Assembly: GCA_040752515.1 (NCBI GenBank)
Contig: JBFMGQ010000013.1
Span: 4,909-68,908, forward strand
Reading direction: 5' to 3'
DNA length: 64,000 nt
Source of the DNA: Bacteroidota bacterium
Lineage (GTDB): Bacteria; Bacteroidota; Bacteroidia; Bacteroidales; Tenuifilaceae
Made by a program: the position numbers and the translations under genes
Shown here: positions 8,792 to 48,019 of the stretch, piece by piece
How the letters are laid out: each line of letters starts with the position of its first letter
Numbering within the stretch: the stretch's first letter is position 1
Notes under the pieces: generated by a model
What the model was told of the DNA's origin: nothing
Seen by the model: only the letters and a program-made list of their open reading frames with translations
Databases searched by the model: none

Positions 8792-9916
8792 CTACCTTGA
8801 GTACCACGAAATACCTAAACTTATTGAAATAAACATTGGCGTATCGCCTACAGGGGGGAGGACAAAGAATGAGAATTTGGTTTTAGGCAAGGGAGCTAAC
8901 TTATTCATGGTTGCAGTGAAATTTGAAAACTCAAAATCTACTCCAAAACCACCAAGGTTAAAGCTGGCATTTGTGTCGCTGCTATAGTCGGTTTGCGTGG
9001 TGTTAATTGGGGCAGGAAGTGTTATGGTAGAGGCTGTTGAAACAAAATTTAGAGTGAGCGATGGTCGGTATTTAAAAGTTAGTGCAACCCCTTTCCAATT
9101 TCCGGGGTCAAGAAATTTACCAATTCCCAAAGTCCAACCTAGATTTACTGCAATAGGGTAAGAGAGCGTAAGTACTGACATATCCATGCTACCCCCACCT
9201 GAAATATTCATATCCAATTTGTAACGGTAAAGCAGAACATCCATTCCCCACCCATAAATGAAGCTGTTCCAAGTAGAAATGCCAGTCTTGTACTCAGGTA
9301 TTTTAAGGTTAAGCCAATTAGTTGCAAGAGAAACACCACCACCATAACCATCAACCCGGGTATCGAAGTCTTTCAAGTCCATGCCAAAATAGGTGCCGGT
9401 AAGCAGAACCGATTCGTTTTTAATTTTACCTCCTCTTGCCAACCACTCCTGCCTTATGGCTTCCGATTCATCAATTTTCTGAATGGTGAAACCAACTGCC
9501 TTGCCGTCTTTATCAATCTTAAAGTTAGTTTCTCCTTCTGCATTAACGGTATCAGCTTTTTGGATTACCTCTCCTACTGCCAACTCTTTCCCCTCGAGGA
9601 GTTTTAAGTAAATACCCTTGAAATCAAAACCAGTTTCAAAAACATACTTCTCGCTGGGAATTGCTCTTAATCGGTACGATTGACGAACACCACCAGCAGC
9701 AGCCTCAATCAGTAAAGGCTTGCTGTAATCGTGAGGAACAATAACTGAAATTTCGCTACCGTTTTTTAGGATGTACTCATTGTCGTTAATAATAATACGT
9801 AATTTAGCAGCCGATCCTTGAAATTTCGAAGGTCTAATGAATTTGATGGTAACACCTTCCTGTGCATTTAATGCTTGGCAGGCAAACATAATAAGCATAA
9901 ATAGTAGTTTTTTCAT
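8792..9916 (-). CDS. Hypothetical exported/outer-membrane protein (small N-terminal beta domain, beta-strand-rich C-terminus)
   Basis: Signal peptide MKKLLFMLIMFACQALNA; amphipathic strands ending ISISLGISWYSR. Confidence 0.55.
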   Translation of the reverse strand: MKKLLFMLIMFACQALNAQEGVTIKFIRPSKFQGSAAKLRIIINDNEYILKNGSEISVIVPHDYSKPLLIEAAAGGVRQSYRLRAIPSEKYVFETGFDFKGIYLKLLEGKELAVGEVIQKADTVNAEGETNFKIDKDGKAVGFTIQKIDESEAIRQEWLARGGKIKNESVLLTGTYFGMDLKDFDTRVDGYGGGVSLATNWLNLKIPEYKTGISTWNSFIYGWGMDVLLYRYKLDMNISGGGSMDMSVLTLSYPIAVNLGWTLGIGKFLDPGNWKGVALTFKYRPSLTLNFVSTASTITLPAPINTTQTDYSSDTNASFNLGGFGVDFEFSNFTATMNKLAPLPKTKFSFFVLPPVGDTPMFISISLGISWYSR

Positions 9917-10198
9917 GGTTTGGTTTGGTTAAGTTTGGTTCATCAAGTTAGTTCATACTTTATGCATTGTCAACTTTATTTTCATGTATTTGATAAACGA
10001 GCATAAAGTGATGGCTATTTCAATTAGTTCTATTACCAACACAAGCTTATTATTGGTGAGGTTTTAATTCCAAATAAATAGAATCAACTTTTATAGAATT
10101 AGTTTGATTTCATTGAATTTAAGGGAGTTGCAGTGTTTAATAAGAGAAACCAAAAAATATGAAGTTAAAAAGAAACCACGCCAGAAGCATAGTTTTAA

Positions 10199-10489
10199 GT
10201 GGTTGGGGCAGAGCCAGTCCCGCGGAGCGGGAACTCGAACCTGCGAAAAGAAACCGAAAGGATATTTGCAGAAGAGAGTGGGTTAAGGAGTTAACCGGAA
10301 AATTAAACAGAAAACCCCGCGCAAGGCGGGGTTTAATTTTTTTGTAGCGGGGGCAGAGCCAGTCCCGCGGAGCGGGAACTCGAACCTGCGAAAAGAAATC
10401 GAAAGGATATTTGCAGAAGAGAGTGGGTTAAGGAGTTAACCTAAAAATAAAACAGAAAACCCCGCGCAAGGCGGGGTTTAATTTTTTTG

Positions 10490-10494
<5 letters not shown>
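10199..10494 (-). repeat. Two tandem 145-bp units, each with a hairpin-interrupted tRNA-Met 3' end and a terminator copy
   Basis: ggggcag recurs at 10205, 10350 and 10495 (period 145); the units differ at about 4 positions. Confidence 0.9.
10456..10479 (-). terminator. Terminator of tRNA-fMet (duplicated at 10311-10334)
   Basis: aaaccccgc-gcaag-gcggggttt with a minus-strand U-tract. Confidence 0.75.
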
Positions 10495-10562
<68 letters not shown>

Positions 10563-10578
10563 ATACTGTTTGCGAGTG

Positions 10579-10609
10579 CAAATATAGTCAAGTTCCCATA
10601 AACAACAAA
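10579..10609 (-). promoter_or_regulatory. Sigma-A promoter of tRNA-fMet
   Basis: Plus strand caaatata (TATATTTG) at 10579 and caaa (TTTG) 19 nt away. Confidence 0.7.
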
Positions 10610-10699
10610 ATCAAATTAATTTTTTTTAACACAACCCGATGTTTTTGCTCTTTGCATATCGTATTTTGCTACATTTCAAATATCTTGCATTCCCATTTG

Positions 10700-12148
10700 A
10701 TGGCATTTATGAGGAAGATATTTGCAGCAAATTTGATTTTCCTGTTACTTCTCAATGGGGTAATAAAACCGCTTTGGATATTTGCTATTGATAGAAATGT
10801 GCAAATAGTGCTGGGTGCTCAAGAGTATGGTTTTTACTTTGCTCTCTTTAATTTCTCGCTCCTTTTCAATTTTTTGCTCGATTTGGGCATCACCAATTTC
10901 AATAATCGTGAAATCAGTTACCATCCTCAAATGGTTTCGCAACAGTTCTCTAACATTGTTGTAATTAAGCTTGTTTTGGCCATAATTTATTCAGTGGTTA
11001 CCGTTGGTTTAGCATTAGCTCTAGGTTTTGGGAGCAGGCATATTGCACTGCTGGCAGTGTTAACGTTAAACCAGTTTTTGGCTTCGTTCCTGCTTTTTGT
11101 TAGATCAAACCTAAATGGACTTCAGCTTTTCAAGGCCGATAGCATTTTGAGTGTTATGGATAAGGTCTTTGTTATTGTTTTGGTATCGTTACTTTTATGG
11201 GGAAATCTGAACTTTAGGTTTACCGTTGAGGTGTTTGCATTAACTCAAACCATTTCATATATTATTACCATTGTTATAGCGTTTTGGCTGCTTAAGGGCA
11301 AATACCGTGTTACTATTCATCCACAATTCGATAGATTCACCATAGCGGATTTAATCAAAAAAGGGTTTCCTTTTGCAGTGCTGGTTTTGCTAATGACTTT
11401 ATATAGCAGGCTCGATACCGTTTTGGTAGAACGGTTAAGCCCTAATGGTGCTGTATCGGCTGGAGTATACGCTCAGGCGTTTAGACTTTTCGATGCCTTC
11501 AATATGTACTCATACCTCTTTGCTGCATTAATGCTACCAATTTTCGCACGCATGATGAGTAACCATGAAGATATCAGGGAGATTTTTAACTTTTCGGTGC
11601 ATCTGCTTATCATTCCCGTTATTGCTATTTCTGTACCAACAATGATTTATAACTACCCCGTAATGAGCATTCTGTATCATGAGCATATTGACATTTCTGC
11701 AAAAGCTTTGGTTTTTCTGATGGGCTCTTTCATTTTTGTTGCATTTGCATACCTTTTTGGAACCGCATTAACTGCAATGGGCAAAATATGGCTACTTTGT
11801 AGGATTTCATTGTTCGTCGTAATATTCGGTTTGCTCTCTATCGTAATACTCATCCCCAGGTTTGGTGTTTTAGGCGCAGCTGTGGCTAACCTTATTGCAA
11901 ACGCATTGGCAGCATTACTCCAGGGCTATTTTTTCATTCGAAATCAAAAGGGGGTAATTGGCAGATCATCGGCTTTAAGAATTTCCCTTTATGTATTCAT
12001 GTACTTTTTACTTGGCTTGATATTTCGGTGTACTGTTGGTAACAATCTGTTAGGTTTTTTAATATCGGTAGCCTCGAGCCTCATCATTATCTTTGGGCTT
12101 CGTTTACTTACATTCAAAGCAGTTTATAGCTTTGTTAAAGGTATATGA
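10700..12148 (+). CDS. Wzx/MurJ-like oligosaccharide flippase (MOP superfamily)
   Basis: 12-14 hydrophobic segments, DLGITNF motif; the ORF-track start at 10520 runs through the tRNA, so the real start is ATG 10700 or 10709. Confidence 0.85.
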   Translation: MAFMRKIFAANLIFLLLLNGVIKPLWIFAIDRNVQIVLGAQEYGFYFALFNFSLLFNFLLDLGITNFNNREISYHPQMVSQQFSNIVVIKLVLAIIYSVVTVGLALALGFGSRHIALLAVLTLNQFLASFLLFVRSNLNGLQLFKADSILSVMDKVFVIVLVSLLLWGNLNFRFTVEVFALTQTISYIITIVIAFWLLKGKYRVTIHPQFDRFTIADLIKKGFPFAVLVLLMTLYSRLDTVLVERLSPNGAVSAGVYAQAFRLFDAFNMYSYLFAALMLPIFARMMSNHEDIREIFNFSVHLLIIPVIAISVPTMIYNYPVMSILYHEHIDISAKALVFLMGSFIFVAFAYLFGTALTAMGKIWLLCRISLFVVIFGLLSIVILIPRFGVLGAAVANLIANALAALLQGYFFIRNQKGVIGRSSALRISLYVFMYFLLGLIFRCTVGNNLLGFLISVASSLIIIFGLRLLTFKAVYSFVKGI

Positions 12149-34599: not shown

Positions 34600-35706
34600 T
34601 TAGGTGTTTTTTTTAGTTGAACTCCTAAAAGCCTTTTTATATTCGGAGGGTGTCATACCGGTTTCCTTTTTAAAAAGGGTATTGAACGATGTTTTGGAGT
34701 TAAACCCCGAGTCGTAGGCAATGCCTAACAGAGTTTCGTTGTCGAAGTTAGGATTTGTAAGCCTTTGCTTGGCCTCCTCAATCCTGAAACCGTTGATATA
34801 GTTGAAAAAGTTTACGCCAAGTTCCTTGTTAAGGTAACTGGAAATTTCCTGGGAGCTTACTTTAAGCTGGTCGGCCAAATCCTGAATGGTTAACTCATTA
34901 TTCAGGTATGGCTTGTTCTTAACCATATGTTCATAAAGTAAATCGCCTAATTTTTGCAATGTTTTGGTCTGTAGGTCTTCATTCGCCTCTATATGTTTAG
35001 GTTTTTTGTACTGGTAGAGCACCGGCTGATGAATTCCGTAGTAGCTTATGGAAAAGGTGAAAACCAGTAAACCCAAGTGGAAAAGTTCAATGGGGTTAAA
35101 CGGGAAAATATTTTGGGTTGAAAAGATTATAAATGTAATACCTGAAGCAAAAAAGCCGGATAGAATCCAAATGGCAATATTTTTTACCCAATTTAGCATG
35201 ATAGTTTCTGAGCGATACGAGAAATGGTCGCCTAGTGTACGGTTGTGCTTTCGGATTAAAACGAGCGATGCTCGCCAGTAGTAAAGAATAACTATCAGGA
35301 AAAGAGCATAGTTGAAAATTGCCAGCCAAGTGATTGGCCCTTTGCTGTAAAAGTTAACGGAGTCAATATCAATTGGTTTGCCCCAAATAGCTGCAATAAG
35401 TATGAAAAGGTAAACCGGAATGAGATGCCTATGAATATTTCGGAGGGTTGTAGGCTTTTTTGATGTTAAAAGTTTGGTATAGAAGAAAAGAAAAGGCCCA
35501 TAGCTTAGTGGGATAATAATTAAATCGGGCAGCCATGTTAGGTATTTTGCATTAAGGAGGGAATACAACATCTCGATACCAATCACAATCAGCCAAACAA
35601 CCAGTAACCGGTCGGCTGATCCCTTGTTGGGTTTTCGGTAAACCAGTAAGGCCGCAAACCAGGCCTGAATAAGGCCTATATGGTATATGGGTATTACGTT
35701 GGTCAT
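34600..35706 (-). CDS. Membrane-anchored AraC-family regulator
   Basis: About 7 N-terminal TM segments; C-terminal KPYLNNELT...AYDSGFNSKTSFNTLFKKETGMTP. Confidence 0.9.
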   Translation of the reverse strand: MTNVIPIYHIGLIQAWFAALLVYRKPNKGSADRLLVVWLIVIGIEMLYSLLNAKYLTWLPDLIIIPLSYGPFLFFYTKLLTSKKPTTLRNIHRHLIPVYLFILIAAIWGKPIDIDSVNFYSKGPITWLAIFNYALFLIVILYYWRASLVLIRKHNRTLGDHFSYRSETIMLNWVKNIAIWILSGFFASGITFIIFSTQNIFPFNPIELFHLGLLVFTFSISYYGIHQPVLYQYKKPKHIEANEDLQTKTLQKLGDLLYEHMVKNKPYLNNELTIQDLADQLKVSSQEISSYLNKELGVNFFNYINGFRIEEAKQRLTNPNFDNETLLGIAYDSGFNSKTSFNTLFKKETGMTPSEYKKAFRSSTKKNT

Positions 35707-35814: not shown

Positions 35815-37239
35815 TCATTTTATTCGGTTTTCGCGGATAACCTCGTGAACAATATCAGGTAAGTTACTTTCGATGGTTTTTAAAACTTCCAGTACCCTTT
35901 TATGCCGGAAACGGTTTTGTCCTATTTCGTTGATGTGCTGAATAAATGCCTGTTTCAATCCTTCGCTATTTATGGAACCTTCCATATATTCCGATGCCCT
36001 ATGGTATAACTGAATTATAGGCAGGTACTGAGGCGTTTCCTTCATTTGCTTTTCTTTGGGTATTAACTTGTACCTGCGTACAATGGAAATAATTTTTGAA
36101 TACTTTTCTGCATGAAATAACGCATCGATGTATGCGGTGAAGAATAGATGCCACCGAAACTCAAAAATTTCTTTTTTGTATGCATTTAGAAATCCATCGG
36201 CATAATCTATTGCTTTTGCACATTGCCCATTTGCCACTAGAGTTTTAATGTAAAAGCTAACAAAACCAATTCTATAGTAAAGATTTCCAGATTTTTTAAG
36301 TTCTGGAAACGACGCTACCATGATCTCCAAGGCTTTTTCGTTTTTGCCTTGTCGCAGTAAAACATCGCAAAGGTTAATTAAGTAGAAAAGGTAATCGCTA
36401 TTGCGGTATCGAATTGAAAGGAAACCATACTTTTCGGCTTCGTCGAGTTCGTTAAGTTTTGAGTGCATCATCGCTCGATTGGCGTAGTAATTTGCTAGTA
36501 TTCGCTTGGAGTAGAAGACATCTTTTTTGAACTGTTGATCGAGATGCTGGTAAACCAGCCGCAACTTGTCGAATTCCCTGTTTGTGTAATAAAGAATGGT
36601 TAACCTTACTAAAGCCCGGTATCGGGTGTATCCGTCTATAGAGTCATTGTAGTAAATATCGGAGAAGAGTTTCTCCCAGGTTTCAAATTCCTCGGCAACC
36701 CATATCTTTTTAAAGATAACTTTTTCGGCTGCTTCGTTCATTTTATTGTTCAGTTGTTGGGAATTAAAGTAGTTTATTTTATAGCGTTCTAAGTAGTTCG
36801 ATACAATGGCGTAATTTCGGGGTCGATTCCGGACAATTAAGTAATCGCGGTAATGTTGCAAAACCCTAAAGAATTTCATGAAGTAGTAACTGGTGGGTAA
36901 CACCTCATCCATTTTCCTAAGTAACTCTAACTCTTGGTCTGACTGAATGGAGTCGTTCATGATGCTTTTTTCAATCTCGCTCAGCCATGCATAAAAGATA
37001 TCAACATCAATTTTTTGAAGATTCTCTTGTATCCAGGCTTTCATGTAGGAGTATGTCCGCTTGTCGATTGATTTATCGAACGGTAAGCGATTTTCTGGGT
37101 TTTTTGAATTATAGGAGATTAAATTGAGAATTTTTAAGTTCTCTTCTTTCTGAAATTGCTGTATCGAGATTAAGTAGTCCAATTCATGCGGGTAAAGTTC
37201 CGCACAAAAGGTCTCGAAAGCGGCAAGTTTACTTTTCAT
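35815..37239 (-). CDS. Hypothetical cytoplasmic alpha-helical (TPR-like) protein
   Basis: 474-aa ORF, no signal peptide, helical repeats (YYANRAMMHSKLNELDEAEKY). Confidence 0.55.
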   Translation of the reverse strand: MKSKLAAFETFCAELYPHELDYLISIQQFQKEENLKILNLISYNSKNPENRLPFDKSIDKRTYSYMKAWIQENLQKIDVDIFYAWLSEIEKSIMNDSIQSDQELELLRKMDEVLPTSYYFMKFFRVLQHYRDYLIVRNRPRNYAIVSNYLERYKINYFNSQQLNNKMNEAAEKVIFKKIWVAEEFETWEKLFSDIYYNDSIDGYTRYRALVRLTILYYTNREFDKLRLVYQHLDQQFKKDVFYSKRILANYYANRAMMHSKLNELDEAEKYGFLSIRYRNSDYLFYLINLCDVLLRQGKNEKALEIMVASFPELKKSGNLYYRIGFVSFYIKTLVANGQCAKAIDYADGFLNAYKKEIFEFRWHLFFTAYIDALFHAEKYSKIISIVRRYKLIPKEKQMKETPQYLPIIQLYHRASEYMEGSINSEGLKQAFIQHINEIGQNRFRHKRVLEVLKTIESNLPDIVHEVIRENRIK

Positions 37240-37298: not shown

Positions 37299-37302
37299 AA
37301 TT

Positions 37303-37698
37303 TTAAATCTGCTTTAACCATTCAGTAGCTTCGCGCTCGTCGTTAAAGAATTTTGATATAAACTTTTTGGGGTCGCGTTTGGCCATTATATTTTTAACTG
37401 CAAAGGTAATAAAGGGATCGTTTGGCAGTAGAACTGCAGAACAGCGATACCCTATTGCCTGAGCTTGCAGTAACCACTCTTCGTTTAACCATTTTTGGTC
37501 TTCCACGGCAAAAACTTTTGCTTCAGTATTATCGGTCAGTATCTTGGTAATGGAGTGTTTACGCATAAGCTCCAACGCAGTATTGCACCCTTCCCTGAAT
37601 TCGTTGCTTGGAGGAAGTCCAATCCACTTAATCTTTAGGCAAGGAACGTCCTCAATAACGGTTATTTTGCAGTGATTTCCTACCTCAATGGTTTCCAT
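37303..37698 (-). CDS. SpoIIAA-like / STAS-SEC14-type small protein
   Basis: KILTDN, DQKWLNEEW, FNDEREATEWL pattern. Confidence 0.7.
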   Translation of the reverse strand: METIEVGNHCKITVIEDVPCLKIKWIGLPPSNEFREGCNTALELMRKHSITKILTDNTEAKVFAVEDQKWLNEEWLLQAQAIGYRCSAVLLPNDPFITFAVKNIMAKRDPKKFISKFFNDEREATEWLKQI

Positions 37699-37704
37699 AT
37701 CAGA

Positions 37705-38658
37705 TTACTGTTTTAGAAATTCTATTACAGCATTGTTGAAAATCTCTGGTTTTTCGAACATCATAAAGTGCCCGCATTTGGGTACCATAACTAACTTACT
37801 GTTAGCAATCTTTGAAGCGCCGTAAGTAGCAATATCTCTGGTTTTCCCGGGGTTAAGATACCGGTTAGGAATTAAGTTGTCGTTTTCGCCAAAGAATATA
37901 AGGGTTGGCATCTTGATATCGTTCAGGTAATCAATTACGGGCTCATCAACCATGCCTTTAACCGATTGGGCTACAGCGTAGCAATAACCATCAAAATCGG
38001 CCGCCTTCCGCATGCGGAGCCTATCGGTAATCATGAATTCGGCTTCTTTGGGAACCTTGTAAAAGTTAGTAGCCAGGTTGTTTTGAATTGCTTCGGCAGT
38101 GGTAAGTTTAACACCTTTAGGCGTCATAACATCCCTAAACCATTGCTTTTGCCCAGCTGTAAACCTCTCGAATCCGGCTGGAGCAACCAAAATAAGGCCG
38201 TTTACAATTTCAGGGTAAAGTAGGGCGGTAGTGATTGATATTTGCCCACCCATTGAATGCCCTGCAAGGTAAACATTTTGTAGGTTGAGCTCCTTGATCA
38301 GTTCAGCAACAACACCTGCGTAGTACGACATTAATCCGCTATGGGGCTCTTTGCTTGATTTACCATATCCGGGGAGGTCGATAGCAATGCAACGAAAATG
38401 CTGGCTTAACTCATTGATGTTCCTGCTCCACGCTGGGGAGTAACTTCCTAAACCATGAATAAAAACAATGGTTTTATGTCCGCTTCCCATGTCGGCATAA
38501 GCTATTGTATGCCCATCGTGCGGAAGGAAAACCTTTTTAACCTGGAAAGGATATTCAAGGTCGTTCATTGTTTTTAAATCGCTTAAACCCTTATAGGGAG
38601 AGCTGCAGCTCGAAGCTACCATAACAATCAGGAGTGCTATTTTAAAATATCGAACCAT
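37705..38658 (-). CDS. Lipoprotein alpha/beta-hydrolase (esterase)
   Basis: Lipobox VASSC; HGLG oxyanion motif, GHSMGG nucleophile, GENDNL (Asp), CGHF (His). Confidence 0.9.
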   Translation of the reverse strand: MVRYFKIALLIVMVASSCSSPYKGLSDLKTMNDLEYPFQVKKVFLPHDGHTIAYADMGSGHKTIVFIHGLGSYSPAWSRNINELSQHFRCIAIDLPGYGKSSKEPHSGLMSYYAGVVAELIKELNLQNVYLAGHSMGGQISITTALLYPEIVNGLILVAPAGFERFTAGQKQWFRDVMTPKGVKLTTAEAIQNNLATNFYKVPKEAEFMITDRLRMRKAADFDGYCYAVAQSVKGMVDEPVIDYLNDIKMPTLIFFGENDNLIPNRYLNPGKTRDIATYGASKIANSKLVMVPKCGHFMMFEKPEIFNNAVIEFLKQ

Positions 38659-38668
38659 TGCTATTCAT

Positions 38669-40264
38669 TTAAAACATTAACCATTTAAAAACCACGAATG
38701 CAGTCCATGGATTTGTAGGACGCTTATCGAGTTCTCCGTTTACAGGGCTACCGTGTGAATTTTCCTTGCTGTCGTAAAAATCGCCCAACATCAGGTAGGC
38801 TGCGTGAAGTTCAAGGCTCATGAACGGGCCAAAGCTGTACATAATAGCACCATTTAGTTCGGTACCCATAAAGAATCCTCCGTCTTTGGGTTGAACATTC
38901 GATAGGGCAAACGCACTTCCTACCTTAGCGTTTAAGCGGTTAGGAATAATTCCTTTTGAGAATGTGAGTGTGCCAGCAGTTAAGCCGCATCCCATGTTTG
39001 AGATATCGCAAATGGCAGGAGTAAAGCGGTTGACTACATTGCCGTGGGGCATTAGAATGTACGACCCACTACTGATGAAGATTGCACCCGGCGAGGCCCA
39101 TTGATTCCCGGTAATAACCCCCGAGTACCTTCCGTCCTTAAGGCCGTCGGCATCACCCGATGAGTAAAGCATATCGAGTGTAACCGCGTCGGAGAGGGTT
39201 TGCCCATAGCGATACGATACCCTAAGATTGGCTGCAAAACCGTAAAAATCATTTGCTTTAGTCCATTGGCTTTGCGAAATAGTTTTATTCAAAAGAGTAT
39301 CTGCTTTACCAAGGTTGACGTTCACAAATCCGGTAATCATCCATGGGTCGAGCCAATGCTCATTGTTACGACCAAAAAATGTGCCCAACCAGTATATATC
39401 AGCTTTATAGGGAACATCGCCGTAACGGAAGAAATATGTGCCGTTATAGGAAGAGAGAAGCGAATTTAATCCCTGTCCCAGAATTGAAACGCCTCCTTTG
39501 CCTGCTGCCCTATCGCGAAGCCAGTATGCCGATAACCCCCATTTCCACGCACGGCTGATATCCTTTTCGCCGGTAAGCTCAAACAACGAAACATCGTCGT
39601 CCTGCTCGGTGGCATTTTCGTAAAGCTGATAGTATCCTGCTTTTATTCTTGAAAAGTCCCAATCCTTCCTTACGGAAATTCCAACACCATCGGTTCCCCA
39701 GTAGGCAAGCCGATATCCGGTAGTAGTCATTTTATCGAATACCGTTCTGTATGGGTTGTATGGAGTGTCGAAAAGGCGCTGTAACCCAAGGTTAATAAAC
39801 CAACCCTTCGACGGATTAAGTTCAATTTCGATGTTCTGGGTTTGAAGGTTAACCTGGTCGGCCGAAATGCCCGAACCAAGATTACCACCAACACCATAGG
39901 CAGCATCGCCCCACGTCCAGTCTATTTCAAATGAGGCGCGTAGCAATGCTTTACCGTTAAATAGTTTAGGCTGATAGATAAAAAAGGGTATCAACCTTTG
40001 CTCAAAATATTTGGAGGTTAGCGAATCGCTGGTGGTGGTTGTGTTGTTGCCGAATAGGCGGCCTACCACTTGCCCTTTTAGGAATTCGCTCTTTGCATAC
40101 ATATTCGATGCCACACCCTGGTTGATAAAGAAAGCAAAAAATTGCAGTTCCTTATCGGCCTTTTCAGGTATTTCTTTTGAGAAATACTGATTTGTGGGTA
40201 CTTGCCCTTGAATGCTCCATGCCATCAGCATGAAGAGCACAAAACCAACAACTCTTTTTTTCAT
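38669..40264 (-). CDS. Outer-membrane beta-barrel protein of unknown family
   Basis: Signal peptide, many amphipathic strands, terminal VVFKWLMF; ATG 40264. Confidence 0.7.
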   Translation of the reverse strand: MKKRVVGFVLFMLMAWSIQGQVPTNQYFSKEIPEKADKELQFFAFFINQGVASNMYAKSEFLKGQVVGRLFGNNTTTTSDSLTSKYFEQRLIPFFIYQPKLFNGKALLRASFEIDWTWGDAAYGVGGNLGSGISADQVNLQTQNIEIELNPSKGWFINLGLQRLFDTPYNPYRTVFDKMTTTGYRLAYWGTDGVGISVRKDWDFSRIKAGYYQLYENATEQDDDVSLFELTGEKDISRAWKWGLSAYWLRDRAAGKGGVSILGQGLNSLLSSYNGTYFFRYGDVPYKADIYWLGTFFGRNNEHWLDPWMITGFVNVNLGKADTLLNKTISQSQWTKANDFYGFAANLRVSYRYGQTLSDAVTLDMLYSSGDADGLKDGRYSGVITGNQWASPGAIFISSGSYILMPHGNVVNRFTPAICDISNMGCGLTAGTLTFSKGIIPNRLNAKVGSAFALSNVQPKDGGFFMGTELNGAIMYSFGPFMSLELHAAYLMLGDFYDSKENSHGSPVNGELDKRPTNPWTAFVVFKWLMF

Positions 40265-40296
40265 CGACACCTGGCAGTTCAGTGGGTTAAAGAAAT

Positions 40297-40329
40297 AAAA
40301 AAGGGACTTGCAGGTATAGCAAGCCCCTT
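40297..40329 (-). terminator. Internal terminator/attenuator-like hairpin after the lipoprotein gene
   Basis: aaggg(a)cttgc...gcaag(c)ccctt with an A-run on the plus strand. Confidence 0.55.
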
Positions 40330-40340
40330 AGGTAATAGTT

Positions 40341-40853
40341 TTAGCGAACAATTTTTATGTACTTCTGAATGTTAGTGGTTCCATATGCTCCACCGCTGGT
40401 GCTTCCAAAACCAGCTTGTGCGGTGGGAGGTGTTACCCCTGGAATTTGAGGCTCAACTTGAGCTACTTCATAGTTCATGGTGTAAGGATTCTTGGTAGCA
40501 TCAATCTCAAAAATCCCTTGGCTGGTAAGGGCAGTGGGTGAACCTTGATTTAAGGTGATGTTCCAAATGTTTCCTACGCCCGATTTGGTTTGAACATACG
40601 TTCCGGTAAGGGTGGTTTTTGCACCATCCTTGAACGATTCAACCAGGTAGGTGTTGTCCTTGTTGAACTTTGCATAAATGGAATCAATCCCTAAGTATGC
40701 GAGCAATGGCGCAACATTTGTTCCCGATGAATACCATTCCCCAACAATACCAACCTTTTGTGGATCGTTCGAGTCATCATCTTCGCTTTTTTCACATGCC
40801 ACAAAGGCTACTGAAAGCATCATGGCTAAAACAAGTAACTTTTTCATTTTCAT
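40341..40853 (-). CDS. Lipocalin-like surface lipoprotein
   Basis: Lipobox AFVAC followed by acidic EKSEDDD; IVGEW motif; beta-strand pattern. Confidence 0.6.
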   Translation of the reverse strand: MKMKKLLVLAMMLSVAFVACEKSEDDDSNDPQKVGIVGEWYSSGTNVAPLLAYLGIDSIYAKFNKDNTYLVESFKDGAKTTLTGTYVQTKSGVGNIWNITLNQGSPTALTSQGIFEIDATKNPYTMNYEVAQVEPQIPGVTPPTAQAGFGSTSGGAYGTTNIQKYIKIVR

Positions 40854-40926
40854 AAGATTTAGTGTTTGACTTTAAGTTCGATTCGGTTTATTTATGTAAG
40901 CAAGTAACAAAAACTCAAACTATGGG

Positions 40927-41005
40927 GTCAACATTGCATTAAAATAAGCAGGGTTGACATTACCTTTAAATATCTTAAATAAGAAATTAAAGTATCAGAA
41001 AAACA
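40927..41005 (-). promoter_or_regulatory. Candidate regulatory region A (shares blocks with 48072-48140)
   Basis: gcatta-N11-gttgacat and aagtatcagaaaaaca; dyad gtcaac-N20-gttgac. Confidence 0.55.
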
Positions 41006-41039
41006 GATAGATAACATTTAAAAGAGTTTGTTTGACCAA

Positions 41040-42056
41040 TTAGCCCCAACGGATTACATTGGCACCCCAGGCATAACCAATTCCTGCTGCTATCATTGAA
41101 ATTATTGTCCCTTTCATGATTTTCCCTGATTTTAGGGCAAGGTGAAGCGATAGGATTTGATCGATTTGCCCCATATGTCCATACTCTTCAAGGTATATGG
41201 TTTGATTCATGGTTAAGCCCAGTTCTTGCACCATGTACTCATACATCGACCTTTTAAAATGGAGGCAAGCCAGATACCCAAGTTTATCCTTATCTACCCC
41301 TGACTTTTTAAAGGCCATATTGATGCAATGCATCCAGTTGCTCATCGATACCTCATTAAGCCGCTCTTTCATATGTTTTTCGTCGAAAACCTTTAGCGAC
41401 TTGTAGGCAAAATGTGCGTTTTCGGCAGTAATGGGTTTACATGTACCACCGTATTCAACGCCCACGTCGCGAGCGAGCGATCCGTCGGTCATGATATGAG
41501 TGCCCAGCAAAACGTTACTGCCCAGGTTGCGTTTCATGATAAGTGCTCCTGCACCAGCCGATAGGTTGTACATGAACGATACTGCGGGATCCTTAAAATC
41601 AATGAAATCGCCATTGCGATAGCCCCCAACAATCATTACCGTTTTAATATCCTCGTCGGCAAGCATCATGTCCTTGGCAATTTTCATTGCTGCAACGGTT
41701 GTTCCACAACGTTGCTGCACATCGATGGCCCAGGCATTTTTTGCTCCTATTTGTTCCTGAATGTAAATGCCCGATGTGGTTAAGGGATACTCCTTCCATT
41801 CTTCGCCAATGCAAAGAATAAGATCAATCGATTCGGGATCGATCCCGGTATTTGCCAGGGCATCCTTAGCAGCTTTAACGCCCATTTCCTGCGTTCCATC
41901 ATTGGGGGCGGGAACAACTATCGATTTTATTCCTAACTTCTCAATCACTGCTTGCTCGCTCCATACCCCGCCAGTTGCTTCCGCAATCTGTCGTGCAGTC
42001 ATTCTTCCCTCAGGGATATATATTCCTGTTCCAACTATTCCAACATGAGTGTTCAT
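41040..42056 (-). CDS. FabH-fold (KAS III-like) enzyme with Cys and a GHxGxxD motif
   Basis: IDVQQRCG, LACLHFKR, YGHMGQID, AAGIGYAWGA; ATG 42056. Confidence 0.8.
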   Translation of the reverse strand: MNTHVGIVGTGIYIPEGRMTARQIAEATGGVWSEQAVIEKLGIKSIVVPAPNDGTQEMGVKAAKDALANTGIDPESIDLILCIGEEWKEYPLTTSGIYIQEQIGAKNAWAIDVQQRCGTTVAAMKIAKDMMLADEDIKTVMIVGGYRNGDFIDFKDPAVSFMYNLSAGAGALIMKRNLGSNVLLGTHIMTDGSLARDVGVEYGGTCKPITAENAHFAYKSLKVFDEKHMKERLNEVSMSNWMHCINMAFKKSGVDKDKLGYLACLHFKRSMYEYMVQELGLTMNQTIYLEEYGHMGQIDQILSLHLALKSGKIMKGTIISMIAAGIGYAWGANVIRWG

Positions 42057-42076
42057 TTTCAATAGCAATTTCAGGT

Positions 42077-43084
42077 TTAGTAAATAAACAAGTTACTTCC
42101 CACCGCCAAGCCTGCGCCCGAAGCTATAAACACAACCCTATCGCCTCTTTTCACTTTGCCTTCGGCAATAGCGTGGTGAAATGCCATGGGCACACAACCC
42201 GATCCGGTATAGCCGTAACGATCCATAACACAGGTGGTTTTGTCCATAGGTTGTCCTAGTTCTTCCATCACCTTTACAATAACTGACCGGTTAATCTGGG
42301 TGAATATGTAGTGGTCAATCTGGTTTGCAGTTAGGTTATTGTCGGTAAGTAATTTACTGGCAACCATTGGCCAAAGCCTGACATTCCTGTCTCCCGGAAG
42401 AGGCTTGAGGTTTTGCAGTCCGTACTCCTTGGCATCTATTTTATCATGGGTAATTGGATTTCGGCTCCCACCTGAGTATATACCTATGAAATCCCATTGA
42501 GTGCCATCGGCCAGATGTTGCCCTGCAATATAGCCTGATTGGCCGGAGATATCTTTTTCCAGAATGAATGCACCAGCTCCATCGGCAAAGATCGAATAAC
42601 CAAATGCATCATCGGGTCGGACAAATGCAGGCATATTGTATACACCAACTACTAGGGCATACTTAATATTGGGTGAATTGTTTAACACTTTCACAGCTGT
42701 GTCAAGTGCTATGGTAAAGCTGGCACACGAGGCATTCACATCAAAAGCGGTTGACCAGCTCTCTTTCCCTTGAACCCTTCCTTGAACAACAATTGCCGTG
42801 GCAGGTGATATGTACTCGGGTGTGTCGGTTGCCACAATTACTAGCCCAATTTCATCGACGCTAATTTTTGCCTCGGCAATTGCGTTTTGCGCAGCCTTTG
42901 TGGCAAAATCGGCAGTAGTTTCATTTAATCCTCTTAGGTGGGCTATATGCCGCTTGTATATTCCAATTTTCTGCTCGGTTTTCTCGGCATCAAATTCGAT
43001 ATTGACAAGTTCTTTCAATTCCTGATTGTCGATAGCCTTGCCGGGAGCATAAACGCCTGTTGATTTTATTCGAACTGGGATCAT
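42077..43084 (-). CDS. FabH-fold (KAS III-like) enzyme lacking the canonical His and Asn
   Basis: FDVNASCASF, FADGAGA, IFTQINR (for HQAN), YGYTGSG (for GNTSAA), GAGL. Confidence 0.82.
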   Translation of the reverse strand: MIPVRIKSTGVYAPGKAIDNQELKELVNIEFDAEKTEQKIGIYKRHIAHLRGLNETTADFATKAAQNAIAEAKISVDEIGLVIVATDTPEYISPATAIVVQGRVQGKESWSTAFDVNASCASFTIALDTAVKVLNNSPNIKYALVVGVYNMPAFVRPDDAFGYSIFADGAGAFILEKDISGQSGYIAGQHLADGTQWDFIGIYSGGSRNPITHDKIDAKEYGLQNLKPLPGDRNVRLWPMVASKLLTDNNLTANQIDHYIFTQINRSVIVKVMEELGQPMDKTTCVMDRYGYTGSGCVPMAFHHAIAEGKVKRGDRVVFIASGAGLAVGSNLFIY

Positions 43085-43097
43085 GGCTGTAATCTGA

Positions 43098-44408
43098 TTA
43101 AATGTAACCCATTTGTTTGGCTTTTTCGGTTAGCTCATCGCGAAACTTGGGATGGGCAATTGAGATAAGCGCTTTGGTTCGTTCTTTAACCGTTAATCCG
43201 GTTAACCTTGCATACCCCCATTCGGTAACAATGTAATCGGTATGGCTACGGTGAAGTGTTACTGCTGTACCCTCAGGCAACACTGGCACAATGGTTGATA
43301 CTTCACCATTTCGTGCGGTAGAACGGCAAGCAATAATTGATTTTCCCAGCCCATCTAACCCCTCAATTGCACCTTCGGCGGTATCGGTTTGACCACCTGT
43401 TCCCGAGTACTGGTTTATGCCTATCGACTCGCTGGCAACCTGCCCAGTAAAATCGACCATGATGCAGGTGTTAATGGATACCATTTTAGAGTTTTGCCTA
43501 ATAACACACGGATCGTTAACATATCGTCCCCTCAGGAACTCAACCGATGGGTTGTTGTCGAGCCAACGGTATAGCTTTTCGGAACCCATGGCAAATGTGC
43601 AAATGAATTTACCATTATGCAGGGCTTTCTTTTTATTGGTAATAACCCCTAACTCGTAAAGTTCCATCATGGAGTCAACCATCATCTCGGTATGCACACC
43701 AAGATCTTTTTTGTTGCGAAGCGATAAGGCAGCAGCGTTAGGTATCTCACCTATGCCTAGTTGAATGGTTGAGCCATCATCAACCAGTTGGGCTATGTGT
43801 TCACCAATACGCATGGCTTCCTCGTCGGGTTGGGGCGAAGGAAGAGTTGGCGGTACTTGCGAATACTCTACAAAGTAATCAACATCCTTGATGTGAACGT
43901 GGGTATCGCCAAAGGTTCTGGGCAGGTGATCGTTAACCTCAAGAACAACTACCTCGGCGGCTTCAAGTATGTCTTTTTCGTAAGTAACTCCAAGTGACAG
44001 CGAGACAAAGCCTTTCTCATCGGGTGGGGTACAGGTACCAACAAACATGTGAGGCCTGCGCACTTTGAGTCTGTCGGTTGCTGCCCGATGTAACATATTG
44101 GGTACATAGGTTACAGTACCCGTTTTTTCCTTGATTGCCTGACGTGATCCGGGTGCATGAAACCAGCTGCATAACTCAAAGTGTCCTTTCATCTCCGGTT
44201 TCATGTAAAAGTCGTAGGGTTTCATGGTAAGTACCGAGAAAACCTTTACATCTTTCACTCTATCTTTGGCTAAGTGGAACTTGCTCATGCAGCCCTGGGG
44301 TTCCGATGCGCATTGAGCGACAATAATATCGCTATCGCTTTTTATTAAATCAGCTACCTGTTCCAGGCTGATTAACTTACTTTTATACAAATCGGTAAAT
44401 TTACCCAT
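43098..44408 (-). CDS. Acetyl-CoA hydrolase/4-hydroxybutyrate CoA-transferase family
   Basis: GFVSLS, IQLGIG, LGVHTEM (catalytic Glu), SGTGGQTD, YIVTEWG. Confidence 0.9.
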   Translation of the reverse strand: MGKFTDLYKSKLISLEQVADLIKSDSDIIVAQCASEPQGCMSKFHLAKDRVKDVKVFSVLTMKPYDFYMKPEMKGHFELCSWFHAPGSRQAIKEKTGTVTYVPNMLHRAATDRLKVRRPHMFVGTCTPPDEKGFVSLSLGVTYEKDILEAAEVVVLEVNDHLPRTFGDTHVHIKDVDYFVEYSQVPPTLPSPQPDEEAMRIGEHIAQLVDDGSTIQLGIGEIPNAAALSLRNKKDLGVHTEMMVDSMMELYELGVITNKKKALHNGKFICTFAMGSEKLYRWLDNNPSVEFLRGRYVNDPCVIRQNSKMVSINTCIMVDFTGQVASESIGINQYSGTGGQTDTAEGAIEGLDGLGKSIIACRSTARNGEVSTIVPVLPEGTAVTLHRSHTDYIVTEWGYARLTGLTVKERTKALISIAHPKFRDELTEKAKQMGYI

Positions 44409-44422
44409 ACTACCTTCAAATT

Positions 44423-45976
44423 TTATTGTTTTTTCTTTATCAATCGCGAAACCAATAGAGCTCCATAACCAAATATTACGGAGGCAATTATTGCAGTTGA
44501 TGCTGCAATTGCAGGATTCCGAATAGTTCCCTCTAAGTATTTATCAAAAAATCCGAAACTTAGTGAGTATTTGGTGTGTAGGTGGGGTAAAAGGTAATAA
44601 ATGCTAAAATGCGTCACTGCAGCTACTATAGATGCTAGGAAGGGTATCCACGATTTTATATCTTTTAAAAAGATACCCATAAGAATAGGTACAAAAATTA
44701 TGGAAAAGTATGCGTAAACTCCATTTTGAGCGAGGATAGCAACGCTTAGCTTAGGATGCAGAAGCTGGTCGCGAGCAACCAAAAACGATACCAGCGCGAG
44801 AGCTACTATAATTATTCGGTTAATCCTAAGGTATTGCTTATCGCTTAGGGCTCTTTTCTCGCCCCATAAGGGCTTAACGATATCGTTATTTATACTACTG
44901 CTTAACGATTGTATTAGCCCTTCGAGGGTTGACATTCCCGCTGAAATTAGCCCTAGTATTACCAACAAGCCAACCAGTGTGGCAACTATTCCATTGGAAA
45001 AAACTTTCACAACATATGAGGGAATGATGCTATCGTTGGTAAGGTGTACACCATTAGCGGTAAGGTCGGGAAATTCCATACGAGCCCATAATCCGGCGAT
45101 AACTACGCTAAAAAACAGTATTTCAACAATTATAGATGTGGCCAAGAATTTATTTACATCACTCTCCTTTTTAAGAAGCAGCGATTTGGTTATTATATGC
45201 GGTTGGCAGACAACGGCAACGCCTATAACAATTTGAGCAAATATAATTTCATAAAAGTCTCGAAATAGTGGACTATTGGGATTTGTAGGTTTTGTGAGAG
45301 CAGGATCTATTGCTGCCAGCTTTTTGAGGAATGCACCAAAACCATCGCTTAAATGATGTAAACCGGAAAATATTAGTATGGCTGCAACCACAATCATTAT
45401 AACAGCCTGGATAGTATTTGTGTAAACCATTGAGTTTGCGCCACCAAACATCATGTATCCAAACACAAATAAAACAATAACGGCAAGCGTTATAACCTCA
45501 TTGGAGTTAAGCGCACTGGCAAAAACCTTAGCAAGCGCAACAAGTATCAGCACTATAAACGTGATAAGCAAAACCGATAGTATGGCAATAAAAAAAGCAT
45601 ACGGCTTGCTGTTATATCTTTTTCCCATCCAGCTGGCAAGCGAAACAGCACTGACCGATTGGCCAAAACGGCGGAAACTTTTAGTTAGAATAGCCAACGA
45701 CACTAAAGTGGCCAGAGGGAAGAAAACCCCAAATGATAGCACACCGCTAATCCCGTAGTTAGCTATTAAACCGGGATTAATTACAAATGTTGCAGCACTG
45801 GTCATTGCTGCAGCAAGGGAAAGCCCTACCGAGTAAGGTGAAAATGTAACGCTACCAAGAGCATAATCGCTCATAGTTTTAACTCGTAATGCTCCCTTAA
45901 TAACAAAGTATAGCACTATACCCGCATATAGCGCTATTAGAATCCAAGTTCCAAATATTTGCTCACTAGTTGCCAT
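44423..45976 (-). CDS. Sodium:solute symporter (SSS family)
   Basis: About 13 TM segments, MTSAATFVINPG, FGGANSMVYTNTIQ, SAGMSTLEG. Confidence 0.88.
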   Translation of the reverse strand: MATSEQIFGTWILIALYAGIVLYFVIKGALRVKTMSDYALGSVTFSPYSVGLSLAAAMTSAATFVINPGLIANYGISGVLSFGVFFPLATLVSLAILTKSFRRFGQSVSAVSLASWMGKRYNSKPYAFFIAILSVLLITFIVLILVALAKVFASALNSNEVITLAVIVLFVFGYMMFGGANSMVYTNTIQAVIMIVVAAILIFSGLHHLSDGFGAFLKKLAAIDPALTKPTNPNSPLFRDFYEIIFAQIVIGVAVVCQPHIITKSLLLKKESDVNKFLATSIIVEILFFSVVIAGLWARMEFPDLTANGVHLTNDSIIPSYVVKVFSNGIVATLVGLLVILGLISAGMSTLEGLIQSLSSSINNDIVKPLWGEKRALSDKQYLRINRIIIVALALVSFLVARDQLLHPKLSVAILAQNGVYAYFSIIFVPILMGIFLKDIKSWIPFLASIVAAVTHFSIYYLLPHLHTKYSLSFGFFDKYLEGTIRNPAIAASTAIIASVIFGYGALLVSRLIKKKQ

Positions 45977-46060
45977 AGGTTTGGTTTGTTAGGTTTGTAA
46001 AGCCATAGACGCAAGTTAGGCAAATAATGCCATTCCTGCGTCTATGAGCAAAAATTTGAG

Positions 46061-46804
46061 TTAGATAGTTATACCACCGTCAACACTTAAGACTGTGCCA
46101 TTAATGTAAGCGGCTTCGTCGCTTGCCAGGAATAGGTAAGCCGATGCAATCTCTTCGGGGAGCCCTAGGCGACCAACCGGAACTTTCTGCTCCATGGCTT
46201 TAAGTATATCCTCGGGCATTTTTTTTACCATTTCGGTTGCTATGAAACCGGGTGCAACGGCATTAACGGTTACCCCTTTACGACCAAGCTCTTTGCCCCA
46301 AGTCTTTGTCATGCCAATTAATCCAGCTTTTGTAGCCACATAGTTGGTTTGGCCAAAATTACCATAAAGGGCAACAACCGACGAGGTGTTGATAATTCGG
46401 CCATAACCCTTGTCAACCATGAAGCCGCTAACGCATTTGGTACAGTTGAAAACCCCTGTAAGATTAACATCAATTACTTCCTGCCATTGCTGAGGAGTCA
46501 TTTTCTTTAGCGTTGAATCGCGAGTAATGCCAGCATTGTTTATTAGTATATCAATCCGCCCGTACTTGCTGATGGCATCGTTAGTTGCAGCTTCAACCTC
46601 TTCGAATTTGGCAGTGTTTACTTTTACAAATTCGGCATTGCCTCCTTTCTTTTTGATTTCGTCAACGGTGGCTTTACCTTTTTCCTCGTTCATATCCCAA
46701 ATAATCACGGTAGCGCCTTCCTGGGCAAAGCGGATCGATGCCGCTTTACCAATTCCATCGGCACCCCCGGTAATGATTGCAATTTTATTCTCAATTCGTT
46801 TCAT
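46061..46804 (-). CDS. PhaB/FabG-like 3-oxoacyl-CoA reductase (SDR)
   Basis: TGGADGIG, NNAGITRD, GNFGQTNYVATKAG, VNAVAPGFI. Confidence 0.88.
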   Translation of the reverse strand: MKRIENKIAIITGGADGIGKAASIRFAQEGATVIIWDMNEEKGKATVDEIKKKGGNAEFVKVNTAKFEEVEAATNDAISKYGRIDILINNAGITRDSTLKKMTPQQWQEVIDVNLTGVFNCTKCVSGFMVDKGYGRIINTSSVVALYGNFGQTNYVATKAGLIGMTKTWGKELGRKGVTVNAVAPGFIATEMVKKMPEDILKAMEQKVPVGRLGLPEEIASAYLFLASDEAAYINGTVLSVDGGITI

Positions 46805-46822
46805 TGTAGTAATTGGTTTAGG

Positions 46823-48019
46823 TTAAATATTTTCAATAATTAATGCAGTTCCTTGGCCGCCCCCAATGCAAAGTGTAGCTAAACCGGTAGCGGCATTACG
46901 GCGTTTCATTTCGTAAATCAGCGTAGTAAGGATTCGGGCTCCCGAGGCTCCAATGGGGTGGCCTAAGGCTATGGCCCCTCCATTAACGTTAACTATTTCG
47001 GGGTTCAGATTTAGATCACGTAGTACAGCAATTGATTGTGCAGCAAAAGCTTCGTTAGCCTCAATAAGTTCAATATCGCTTATTTGCATTTTGGCTTTTT
47101 GTAAGGCAATACGAGTAGCTGGTACTGGGCCATAGCCCATAATCTTGGGATCGAGAGCTGCGTTTCCATACGAAACTATTTTAACCAATGGTTTTAAGCC
47201 TAATTCGTTAGCCTTATCTCGCGACATTACAATTAACATGGCAGCCCCGTCGTTGATACCCGATGCATTACCTGCTGTAACCGTACCATCTTTTTTAAAG
47301 GCAGGCTTAAGTTTTTGCAGTTGCTCAAGGGTAACGCCTTGCCTAATAAACTCATCGGTTTTAAACAGGATTGGATCACCTTTTTTTTGGGGTATTTCAA
47401 CCGGAACAATTTCGGGCTCAAACTTGCCTGCTTTTTGAGCTGCTTCGGCTTTTTGCTGGCTATTTAGTGCAAATTCATCCTGCTCTTCGCGGCTAATTTT
47501 CCATTGTTCAGCAATATTTTCAGCTGTAATGCCCATATGATATTGATTAAACACATCGGTTAGTCCATCGTATATCATGCTGTCAATAATTTGGCCGTGC
47601 CCCATACGGTAACCGTTCCGAGCTTTGTCGAGTAGATAGGGTGCATTGGTCATGCTTTCGGTTCCTCCAGCAAGAATTACATCGGCATCGCCAAGCATAA
47701 TGAATTGGGCAGCCATAGAAACAGCTCTCAGCCCCGATCCACATAATTTGTTGATAGTCATTGCCGGTGAGGTGTCGGGCACACCAGCTTTAATTGCAAC
47801 TTGGCGTCCAACATTTTGTCCAAGTCCTGCCGATAGTATGTTTCCTACTATCGCTTCGTTTATTTCGGTAGGATTGATTCCAGCACGGGTTATCGCCTCT
47901 CGTGCTGCTATTGCACCAAGTTCAACGGCGCTTAATCCCGATAGGCTGCCATTAAAATTCCCTATGGCTGTTCGGGCGGCTGATACTATTACTACTTCTT
48001 TCATTTTATTGGGTTTCAT
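46823..48019 (-). CDS. atoB: Acetyl-CoA C-acetyltransferase (thiolase II, AtoB/PhaA family)
   Basis: [31 protein letters not shown]; alternative start 48004. Confidence 0.93.

Follow-up and report, generated by a model that had tools for sequence, protein, structure and literature searches.

Gene A (positions 42077–43084, minus strand) is the first of two adjacent genes for proteins of the FabH fold, that of ketoacyl-acyl carrier protein (ACP) synthase III (KAS III), in a 64,000-nucleotide stretch of a Bacteroidota genome of the Tenuifilaceae (contig JBFMGQ010000013.1 of GCA_040752515.1); the whole stretch is here called the window. On its sequence, A belongs to a large, unnamed and uncharacterized FabH-derived clade in which the catalytic histidine and asparagine of FabH are replaced by threonine or serine and by tyrosine. 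It is not a fatty-acid initiator, and is probably a conserved working enzyme, neither a decayed FabH nor a catalytically dead dimer partner. The best reading, which may equally well prove right or wrong, is that A is an active acyl-Cys enzyme in the anaerobic catabolism of 3-hydroxybutyrate esters, where it may carry out a coenzyme A (CoA)-dependent ester cleavage, and that the second gene, B, encodes a further acyltransferase.

Active site of gene A

The gene and the codons of the residues discussed are as follows, with equivalents numbered as in Escherichia coli FabH. CTY and CSY denote enzymes with Cys-Thr-Tyr and Cys-Ser-Tyr active sites, and CHN those with the canonical Cys-His-Asn.

42077–43084, minus strand: gene A, CTY-clade FabH-fold enzyme of 335 aa, with Asp87, Ser93, Cys120, Thr262, Tyr292, Cys297 and Gly323/Gly325
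42725–42727, minus strand: codon of Cys120 (TGT), the acyl-carrying nucleophile, equivalent to Cys112; invariant in the A family
42299–42301, minus strand: codon of Thr262 (ACC), at the His244 position; invariant in the A family, Ser in the sister CSY clade
42209–42211, minus strand: codon of Tyr292 (TAT), at the Asn274 position; invariant in the A family
42194–42196, minus strand: codon of Cys297, in the column of B Asp299 and FabH Ser279; present in 17 of 19 CTY representatives
42824–42826, minus strand: codon of Asp87, a clade-specific acidic residue; present in 18 of 19 CTY representatives, with Ser, Val, Thr or Ile in true FabH

Alignment to E. coli FabH places Cys120 in the motif NASCASF, Thr262 in FTQIN and Tyr292 in GYTGSG. 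Together with a check of the codons, this bears out the original prediction, made from the sequence of the window, that the cysteine is kept, that HQAN reads TQIN and that GNTS reads GYTG. Both Pfam KAS III domains are present. The protein scores below the NCBIfam cut-offs for FabH (NF006829, 207.3 bits against 249; TIGR00747, 179.4 against 292.1), and no NCBIfam model passes its cut-off for A. An AlphaFold2 model built from an alignment of 77 sequences has a mean predicted local distance difference test score (pLDDT) of 96.6, and matches solved FabH structures with Z scores of 44–46 and root-mean-square deviations of 1.8–2.0 Å over about 316 residues (best match, Z 45.9 and 1.8 Å).

The same prediction held that the remaining fold motifs are intact, which is true in part. 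The fold itself, the oxyanion-hole glycines Gly323 and Gly325 and the equivalent of Phe157 are kept. The equivalents of Trp32, Arg151, Arg249, Phe87, Pro243 and Phe304 are replaced, and replaced throughout the clade; in A, Lys35 stands at the Trp32 position, Ala160 at that of Arg151 and Ser267 at that of Arg249. In E. coli FabH, Trp32 and Arg151 hold the adenine of CoA, and Arg249 docks ACP.

Elsewhere, the genome from which the window comes encodes a canonical Cys-His-Asn FabH (with Trp32, HQAN and GNT) and another CHN paralogue. Gene A is therefore not needed for starting fatty-acid synthesis, and the earlier view that these genes are not fatty-acid initiators stands for A. In addition, Cys297 of A shares an alignment column with Asp299 of B (41160–41162), which pairs with the histidine of B. 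This suggests that a Tyr-Cys pair in A may stand in for the His-Asp pair of B.

The Cys-Thr/Ser-Tyr clade

When one genome per species was scanned, members of the A family (56–82% identical) turned up at 80 loci. Cys120, Thr262 (in FTQIN) and Tyr292 (in [GA]YTGS) are invariant in all 81 homologues, which are 56–93% identical and come from at least six phyla; they occur in Bacteroidales, Chlorobiota, Gammaproteobacteria, Firmicutes/Clostridia, Spirochaetes, Thermoflexales and Bacteriovoracaceae. Both substitutions, His to Thr and Asn to Tyr, are thus conserved, and are neither chance nor decay. The family is tight: when 1.8 billion representatives were searched exhaustively with HMMER, only a few clusters reached 47% identity or more.

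Of the 140 best full-length matches from that search (representatives at 50% clustering), 19 have the CTY active site, 18 the CSY and 93 the CHN. The CHN representatives carry Trp32 in 86 of 93 cases, Arg151 in 74 and Arg249 in 73; all three are lost in the CTY and CSY sets, and the Arg249 position is Ser or Glu in CTY sequences. Further changes are coordinated with these: Ser93 takes the place of the partner-pocket residue Phe87, Pro243 is replaced by Phe and Phe304 by Ser. The two sets gain Asp87, Ser93 and Cys297, and the oxyanion-hole glycines remain invariant. Gene A carries the clade signature of Cys120, Thr/Ser262, Gln263, Tyr292 and Asp87 with no equivalents of Trp32, Arg151 and Arg249. 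In a quick maximum-likelihood tree, a branch with 99% support sets CHN FabH apart, the A family (100%) is nested among CTY sequences and B forms a separate long branch.

None of 10 CTY/CSY representatives passed an NCBIfam cut-off, and a search of the ESM Atlas returned only generic 'ketoacyl-ACP synthase III' clusters. A full-text literature search, outside which much subscription literature lies, found neither a characterized Cys-Thr/Ser-Tyr KAS III enzyme nor a KAS III enzyme in poly(3-hydroxybutyrate) (PHB) catabolism. The database name 'ketoacyl-ACP synthase III', which is attached to thousands of such proteins, is almost certainly wrong for the whole clade, and the Thr/Tyr signature provides a simple annotation rule that separates the clade from true FabH.

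Operon context

Gene A lies within an operon on the minus strand. The other features, in the direction of transcription, are as follows.

46823–48019, minus strand: acetoacetyl-CoA thiolase (thiolase II)
46061–46804, minus strand: FabG/PhaB-like short-chain dehydrogenase/reductase (SDR), with Asp38 following strand 2; no other neighbour of CTY enzymes is as constant
44423–45976, minus strand: sodium:solute symporter (SSS), probable carboxylate importer
43098–44408, minus strand: CoA-transferase of the acetyl-CoA hydrolase/transferase family; adjoins A in almost every phylum; variant operons have an AMP-forming ligase in its place
41040–42068 (probable ATG at 42056), minus strand: gene B, second FabH-fold enzyme (NCBIfam PRK06840), with Cys117, His266, His294 and Asp299
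40341–40853, minus strand: lipoprotein of 170 aa, first gene of the envelope module; no Pfam match
38669–40270, minus strand: putative outer-membrane barrel of 533 aa; no Pfam match, co-varies with the esterase
37705–38658, minus strand: lipoprotein alpha/beta-hydrolase with a Ser nucleophile (GHSMG); weak match, below the cut-off, to an intracellular short-chain polyhydroxyalkanoate (PHA) depolymerase model
37303–37698, minus strand: operon-tail gene of 131 aa; no Pfam match, syntenic in most Bacteroidales loci
35815–37239, minus strand: operon-tail gene of 474 aa; no Pfam match, syntenic in most Bacteroidales loci

The order thiolase, SDR, SSS, CoA-transferase, A, B, lipoprotein, putative barrel, esterase is found in about 62 of the 80 A-family loci, all of them of Bacteroidota type, and the operon is kept in about 62 species-level genomes. 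By the usual SDR cofactor rule, Asp38 indicates that the dehydrogenase is probably NAD-linked and oxidative. Contigs from an RNA library of one relative, about 91–92% identical, cover almost the whole operon (37300–47120), and one of them spans the A/B junction (41749–42830). As assembled contigs of one library only, they are a hint of operon expression and not proof of it.

Some further features of the neighbourhood may be recorded here. The putative barrel and the lipoprotein esterase (37705–40270) co-vary tightly (partial r 0.85) and do so independently of the cytoplasmic genes, as though the envelope module were swapped as a block. A PhaC-like synthase role for the neighbouring alpha/beta-hydrolases was ruled out, as they carry GxSxG and not GxCxG. 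Immediately beyond the downstream end of the operon is a gene for an AraC-family regulator (34600–35706, minus strand).

A more distant set of CTY genes was reached by a metagenome scan seeded with a CTY-only alignment. It returned 80 loci, 68 of which hold a distant CTY gene (31–42% identical to A). The SDR lies directly upstream of the distant CTY gene in 22 of 52 loci. Among 23 well-flanked CTY loci, an SDR is present in 18, an alpha/beta-hydrolase in 15, a classical thiolase in three and a B-type KAS gene in none. The minimal conserved module consists of hydrolase, CTY enzyme and SDR; 19 of the 23 have neither a CoA-transferase nor a ligase. No B-type gene lies beside the CTY gene in any of the 68 loci, including 22 with at least 2.5 kb on both sides. 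With B absent from these loci and the SDR and hydrolase constant, the KAS-fold core of the pathway is the CTY enzyme, to which B is an add-on. This reverses the earlier picture of A as a degenerate partner.

Gene B scores 461 bits against NCBIfam PRK06840, the cut-off being 315. In a profile of 39 B-family sequences, His266 falls at the FabH His244 position, His294 at that of Asn274 and Asp299 five residues further on; Cys117, His294 and Asp299 are invariant in the family. In ChlB3 and CerJ, a His at the Asn274 position is paired with an Asp at +5, and KAS III-fold enzymes of this kind can be O-acyltransferases (PMC9573744). The site of DpsC is Ser-His-His (His266, His297), according to the same paper on ChlB3 (PMC9573744). 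The two histidines of B match those of DpsC, and the His(+0)/Asp(+5) motif at the Asn274 position is common to B and the CerJ/ChlB3/DpsC group. The model of B is structurally nearest to ordinary FabH, and DpsC comes no higher than rank 42. The kinship of B to these transferases is therefore at the level of the motif and is not global.

Proposed role in 3-hydroxybutyrate ester catabolism

In FabH, Cys112 forms the acyl-enzyme, the backbone amides of Cys112 and Gly306 provide the oxyanion hole for the tetrahedral intermediate, and His244 and Asn274 stabilize the enolate formed by decarboxylation (PMC10054515). The CTY/CSY clade would have kept the transacylation half of this chemistry, with Cys120 at a helix N-terminus and a backbone oxyanion hole, and would have dropped the residues for malonyl-ACP decarboxylation and docking (His244, Asn274, Trp32, Arg151 and Arg249). 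A new polar set (Thr/Ser262, Tyr292, Asp87 and Cys297) appears to have been fixed in their place, which may suit an alcohol leaving group rather than an enolate.

The operon substrate is most likely a 3-hydroxybutyrate oligomer or ester derived from PHA. Esters would be captured at the envelope by the lipoprotein, the putative barrel and the Ser-esterase, and the acid would be imported by the SSS symporter. The CoA thioester would then be made by the CoA-transferase, or by the AMP-forming ligase in variant operons, the 3-hydroxyacyl-CoA would be oxidized by the NAD-type PhaB-like SDR and the resulting acetoacetyl-CoA would be cleaved by the thiolase. Within this scheme, Cys120 of A may attack an ester carbonyl in a 3-hydroxybutyrate oligomer, either free or as its CoA ester. 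Tyr292 and Thr262 could hold or protonate the leaving 3-hydroxyl, the downstream unit departing as an alcohol, and the 3-hydroxybutyryl-S-Cys could be passed to CoA to give 3-hydroxybutyryl-CoA for the SDR. The ester bond would thereby be saved as a thioester, as in the CoA-dependent thiolysis by PhaZ1. Gene B may encode another transferase of this kind that uses a different ester or acceptor and could act before, after or in parallel with A.

The net reaction of the proposed ester cleavage has a precedent in PhaZ1, and the fold a precedent for ester chemistry in CerJ. Cleavage of PHB by PhaZ1 with CoA, giving 3-hydroxybutyryl-CoA, is cited in PMC3430594.

Several points weigh against this reading. 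The ester-thiolysis step is one that we infer on chemical grounds from the context and the residues. Loss of the Trp32 and Arg151 equivalents puts the mode of CoA binding by A in question. The monomer route from 3-hydroxybutyrate through 3-hydroxybutyryl-CoA and acetoacetyl-CoA to acetyl-CoA needs neither A nor B, and the assignment of the substrate is therefore indirect. The link of the Bacteroidales operon to PHA comes from gene content and habitat. Judged by the motifs (ATDT in A, ATES in the synthase), Asp87 may lie at the position of the catalytic base (Glu) of 3-hydroxy-3-methylglutaryl-CoA (HMG-CoA) synthase, and would fit carbanion chemistry equally well. Finally, the strict co-occurrence of A and B within the A family, described below, would also fit a complex of the two.

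A broader form of the proposal is put forward tentatively, and is less likely to be right than wrong: the Cys-Thr/Ser-Tyr KAS III enzymes as a whole would be CoA-dependent 'ester thiolases', converting 3-hydroxyalkanoate oligomer esters to 3-hydroxyacyl-CoA via an acyl-Cys intermediate, a new reaction class in the thiolase superfamily. If true, this would supply the missing energy-conserving cytoplasmic step of anaerobic PHA degradation, widespread in digesters, sediments and soils.

Alternative functions

The main chemical rival to ester cleavage is that A makes or breaks a carbon–carbon bond. It could be a KAS III-fold 'thiolase' with non-decarboxylative (retro-)Claisen chemistry on acetoacetyl- or 3-ketoacyl-CoA, or could form a carbanion on its own acyl-Cys in the manner of HMG-CoA synthase or OleA; Tyr292 and Thr262 would then form a hydroxyl oxyanion hole, with Asp87 or Cys297 as acid/base. 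In favour of this, an SDR that would make or consume a 3-keto thioester accompanies the clade more constantly than any other neighbour (directly upstream in the 22 of 52 loci noted above), and classical thiolases are scarce (three of the 23 well-flanked loci). The clade-specific Asp87 is in keeping with it, as are weak NCBIfam matches of 84 bits to HMG-CoA synthase models. These matches fall far below the cut-off of 244, however, and A lacks the histidine that both HMG-CoA synthase and thiolase retain. Moreover, a classical thiolase II is already encoded within the operon of the window. An HMG-CoA synthase (TIGR01835) with which Asp87 could be compared was not found in the 121 Bacteroidota genomes searched. 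Carbon–carbon chemistry is, on balance, rather improbable for A.

Somewhat less probable again is an obligate A–B heterodimer of the PqsBC kind, in which interface loops (Ser93 of A and the Tyr of the EYP motif of B) would enter the partner's pocket and the two proteins would perform one composite reaction. The genes are certainly close in the window. The TAA stop codon of A (42077–42079) is followed after 8 nt by a TTG and after 20 nt by the ATG of B (42056), so that the earlier placing of A 20 bp upstream of the other atypical KAS gene is correct when read along the direction of transcription. Of the 301 Bacteroidales genomes that were sampled, 17 have A and 19 have B, and B lies directly downstream in all 17 that carry A, as it does in the roughly 62 loci with the conserved order. 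The two Bacteroidales genomes that have B only hold, in the same operon, a divergent CTY paralogue, A' (35–37% identical, with NTACAGF, FLTQIN and GYTGSAC), and an AMP-forming ligase in place of the CoA-transferase. When B is missing from the A locus it is found elsewhere in the genome, in five of five cases (three proteobacterial metagenome-assembled genomes, MAGs, and two spirochaetes). KAS III enzymes are, in addition, dimers in which an interface loop lines the partner's pocket, with PqsBC as a precedent (PMC4807248), and the RNA-library contig from the approximately 91% identical relative bridges the A/B junction.

The same survey also shows that the two genes are separable. In spirochaetes and Firmicutes, A is followed by a CoA-transferase and a thiolase, and B (38–43% identical) is encoded close by on the other strand. 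Four proteobacterial MAGs, three of them labelled Gammaproteobacteria, have only an alpha/beta-hydrolase with A at its locus; B (62–65% identical) lies elsewhere in all three that were searched, in one of them, a gammaproteobacterial case, on the same contig at a distance of 200 kb. Between A and B, the spacer ranges in length from about 15 to 230 nt, and the two genes are therefore not translationally coupled. Several Bacteroidota-type operons of the order SDR, A', SSS, AMP-forming ligase, lipoprotein, barrel, esterase have no room for B, and the distant CTY loci are without it altogether. The expectation that the GHxGxxD paralogue (B) always accompanies the altered FabH was thus correct within the A family (adjacent in 17 of 17, elsewhere in five of five) and failed for its distant relatives (0 of 68).

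Two weaker lines of evidence point the same way. No fused A–B protein was found at E≤1e-20 among longer proteins (588–2000 aa). In a mirror-tree comparison of 37 complete operons, the partial distance correlation of A with B (0.32) was no higher than that of other operon pairs (A–SSS 0.55, B–CoA-transferase 0.58, barrel–esterase 0.85).

A further objection lies in the protein itself. PqsB lacks all three catalytic residues, is truncated and has the role of a scaffold (PMC4807248). Unlike PqsB, A retains an invariant Cys, the oxyanion-hole glycines and a full-length fold. The proposal that A is a degenerate partner in the style of PqsBC is accordingly not upheld. The original prediction had offered either a complex or sequential acyl carriers; of these, sequential acyl-group steps fit the data, and an obligate PqsBC-like heterodimer is disfavoured. 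A stable A–B complex is possible, being neither required nor favoured.

The variant operons seen among these genomes are of three kinds: CoA-transferase followed by A and B; A' before the symporter and AMP-forming ligase, followed by B; and A' and ligase with no B. The loci concerned are L091 (G265) 3873–10992, L092 (G159), L132 5229–12965, L128, L129 and L164. Tandem CTY–CTY pairs, about 40% identical to A, were also seen at three to four loci (L097 123–2088, L098 5008–6963, L099 802–2757 and L111 166–1693), preceding an alpha/beta-hydrolase and, in L097, an SDR as well. These may be CTY–CTY heterodimers or simple duplicates.

It is very doubtful that A is a 3-hydroxybutyryl-CoA:ACP transacylase which feeds PHA-derived C4 units into fatty-acid synthesis, in the way that ChlB3 and DpsC load ACP. 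Such a role would be chemically feasible, since the Cys-only chemistry of FabH is enough for acyl-CoA:ACP transacylation through the acyl-Cys step (PMC10054515) and KAS III-like enzymes that load ACP exist (PMC9573744). The equivalent of the ACP-docking Arg249, present in 73 of 93 CHN representatives, is, however, Ser or Glu in CTY sequences and lost clade-wide. The operon has no ACP gene, and its context of symporter, CoA-transferase and thiolase is catabolic.

That A is a FabH duplicate in decay, lacking any function of its own, as the loss of His and Asn taken alone might suggest and as had been anticipated should homologues keep these residues, has practically no chance of being correct: the homologues carry Thr and Tyr throughout, the key residues are conserved in 81 of 81, the frame is open at 56–93% identity across phyla and the patchy but syntenic distribution is typical of a selected accessory operon.

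Habitat and significance

DNA of the window is present in metagenomes from anaerobic digesters, sludge, wastewater and groundwater. Among the MAGs that carry A, those named Madre6, BHT14_PHBH_gam1 and PJM12_PHB_gam2 are of PHA-plastisphere origin. A deep-sea study has tied an uncultured gammaproteobacterial order to PHA plastispheres in the absence of oxygen, and notes its detection on PHA submerged in the Gulf of Mexico as well (PMC10817984); Madre6, BHT14_PHBH_gam1 and PJM12_PHB_gam2 are assigned to that study and order by their names alone.

In a MAG from a plastisphere of poly(3-hydroxybutyrate-co-3-hydroxyhexanoate) (PHBH), A is followed by a Ser alpha/beta-hydrolase gene, and 4 kb away lies a gene for a protein of 827 aa that combines an Esterase_PHB domain with Ig-like repeats. 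The B homologue of this MAG stands alone between flagellar genes and a GGDEF/EAL gene, and a second B-like gene adjoins a CoA-transferase gene (L063 1501–3984 and 9035–9901; L089 9133–10185).

The CTY clade thus travels with a 3-hydroxyacyl dehydrogenase-type SDR and with esterases in anaerobes of digesters, sludge and PHA plastispheres. Its reaction, once found, would fill a gap in the oxygen-free consumption of PHB and PHBH bioplastics and of storage polyesters, and might yield a new biocatalyst for converting oxygen esters into CoA thioesters and back.

Comparison with known systems

Gene A has the same fold as the FabH/KAS III enzymes (E. coli 1HN9/1EBL and Neisseria meningitidis 4RYB; EC 2.3.1.180), at about 31% identity, and shares with them the position of the nucleophile, the oxyanion-hole glycines and the Phe157 equivalent. 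It differs in having Thr for His244 and Tyr for Asn274, in lacking equivalents of Trp32, Arg151 and Arg249, and in lying in a catabolic operon.

The resemblance to PqsBC of Pseudomonas aeruginosa (5DWZ/6ESZ; PMC4807248) consists of two adjacent, dissimilar FabH-fold genes with non-canonical sites, neither a fatty-acid initiator. PqsB is, however, a reduced scaffold with no catalytic residues, whereas A has its Cys and a full fold of 335 aa; in other phyla the two genes need not lie together, and relatives of A occur without a B-type partner. No kinship of A to PqsB or PqsC closer than that to FabH is detectable, and PqsD, rather than PqsB or PqsC, is among its PDB matches.

CerJ (3S3L), ChlB3 (7EQI) and DpsC (5WGC) likewise use the KAS III fold for acyl transfer via an acyl-Cys (or acyl-Ser) without decarboxylative condensation, and CerJ makes an oxygen ester. 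Gene A differs from them in having Tyr292 and Cys297 in the His and Asp columns and in belonging to primary catabolism rather than to polyketide tailoring; taken as a whole, A and B each stand nearer to FabH than to these enzymes.

HMG-CoA synthase differs from A in its Glu-Cys-His triad, of which A lacks the His, and the best HMG-CoA synthase family model gives A 84 bits against a cut-off of 244. The likeness of A to PhaZ1 of Ralstonia eutropha would be functional and hypothetical only, and would lie in the proposed net reaction of a 3-hydroxybutyrate ester with CoA to give 3-hydroxybutyryl-CoA; PhaZ1 has another fold and acts on native granules.

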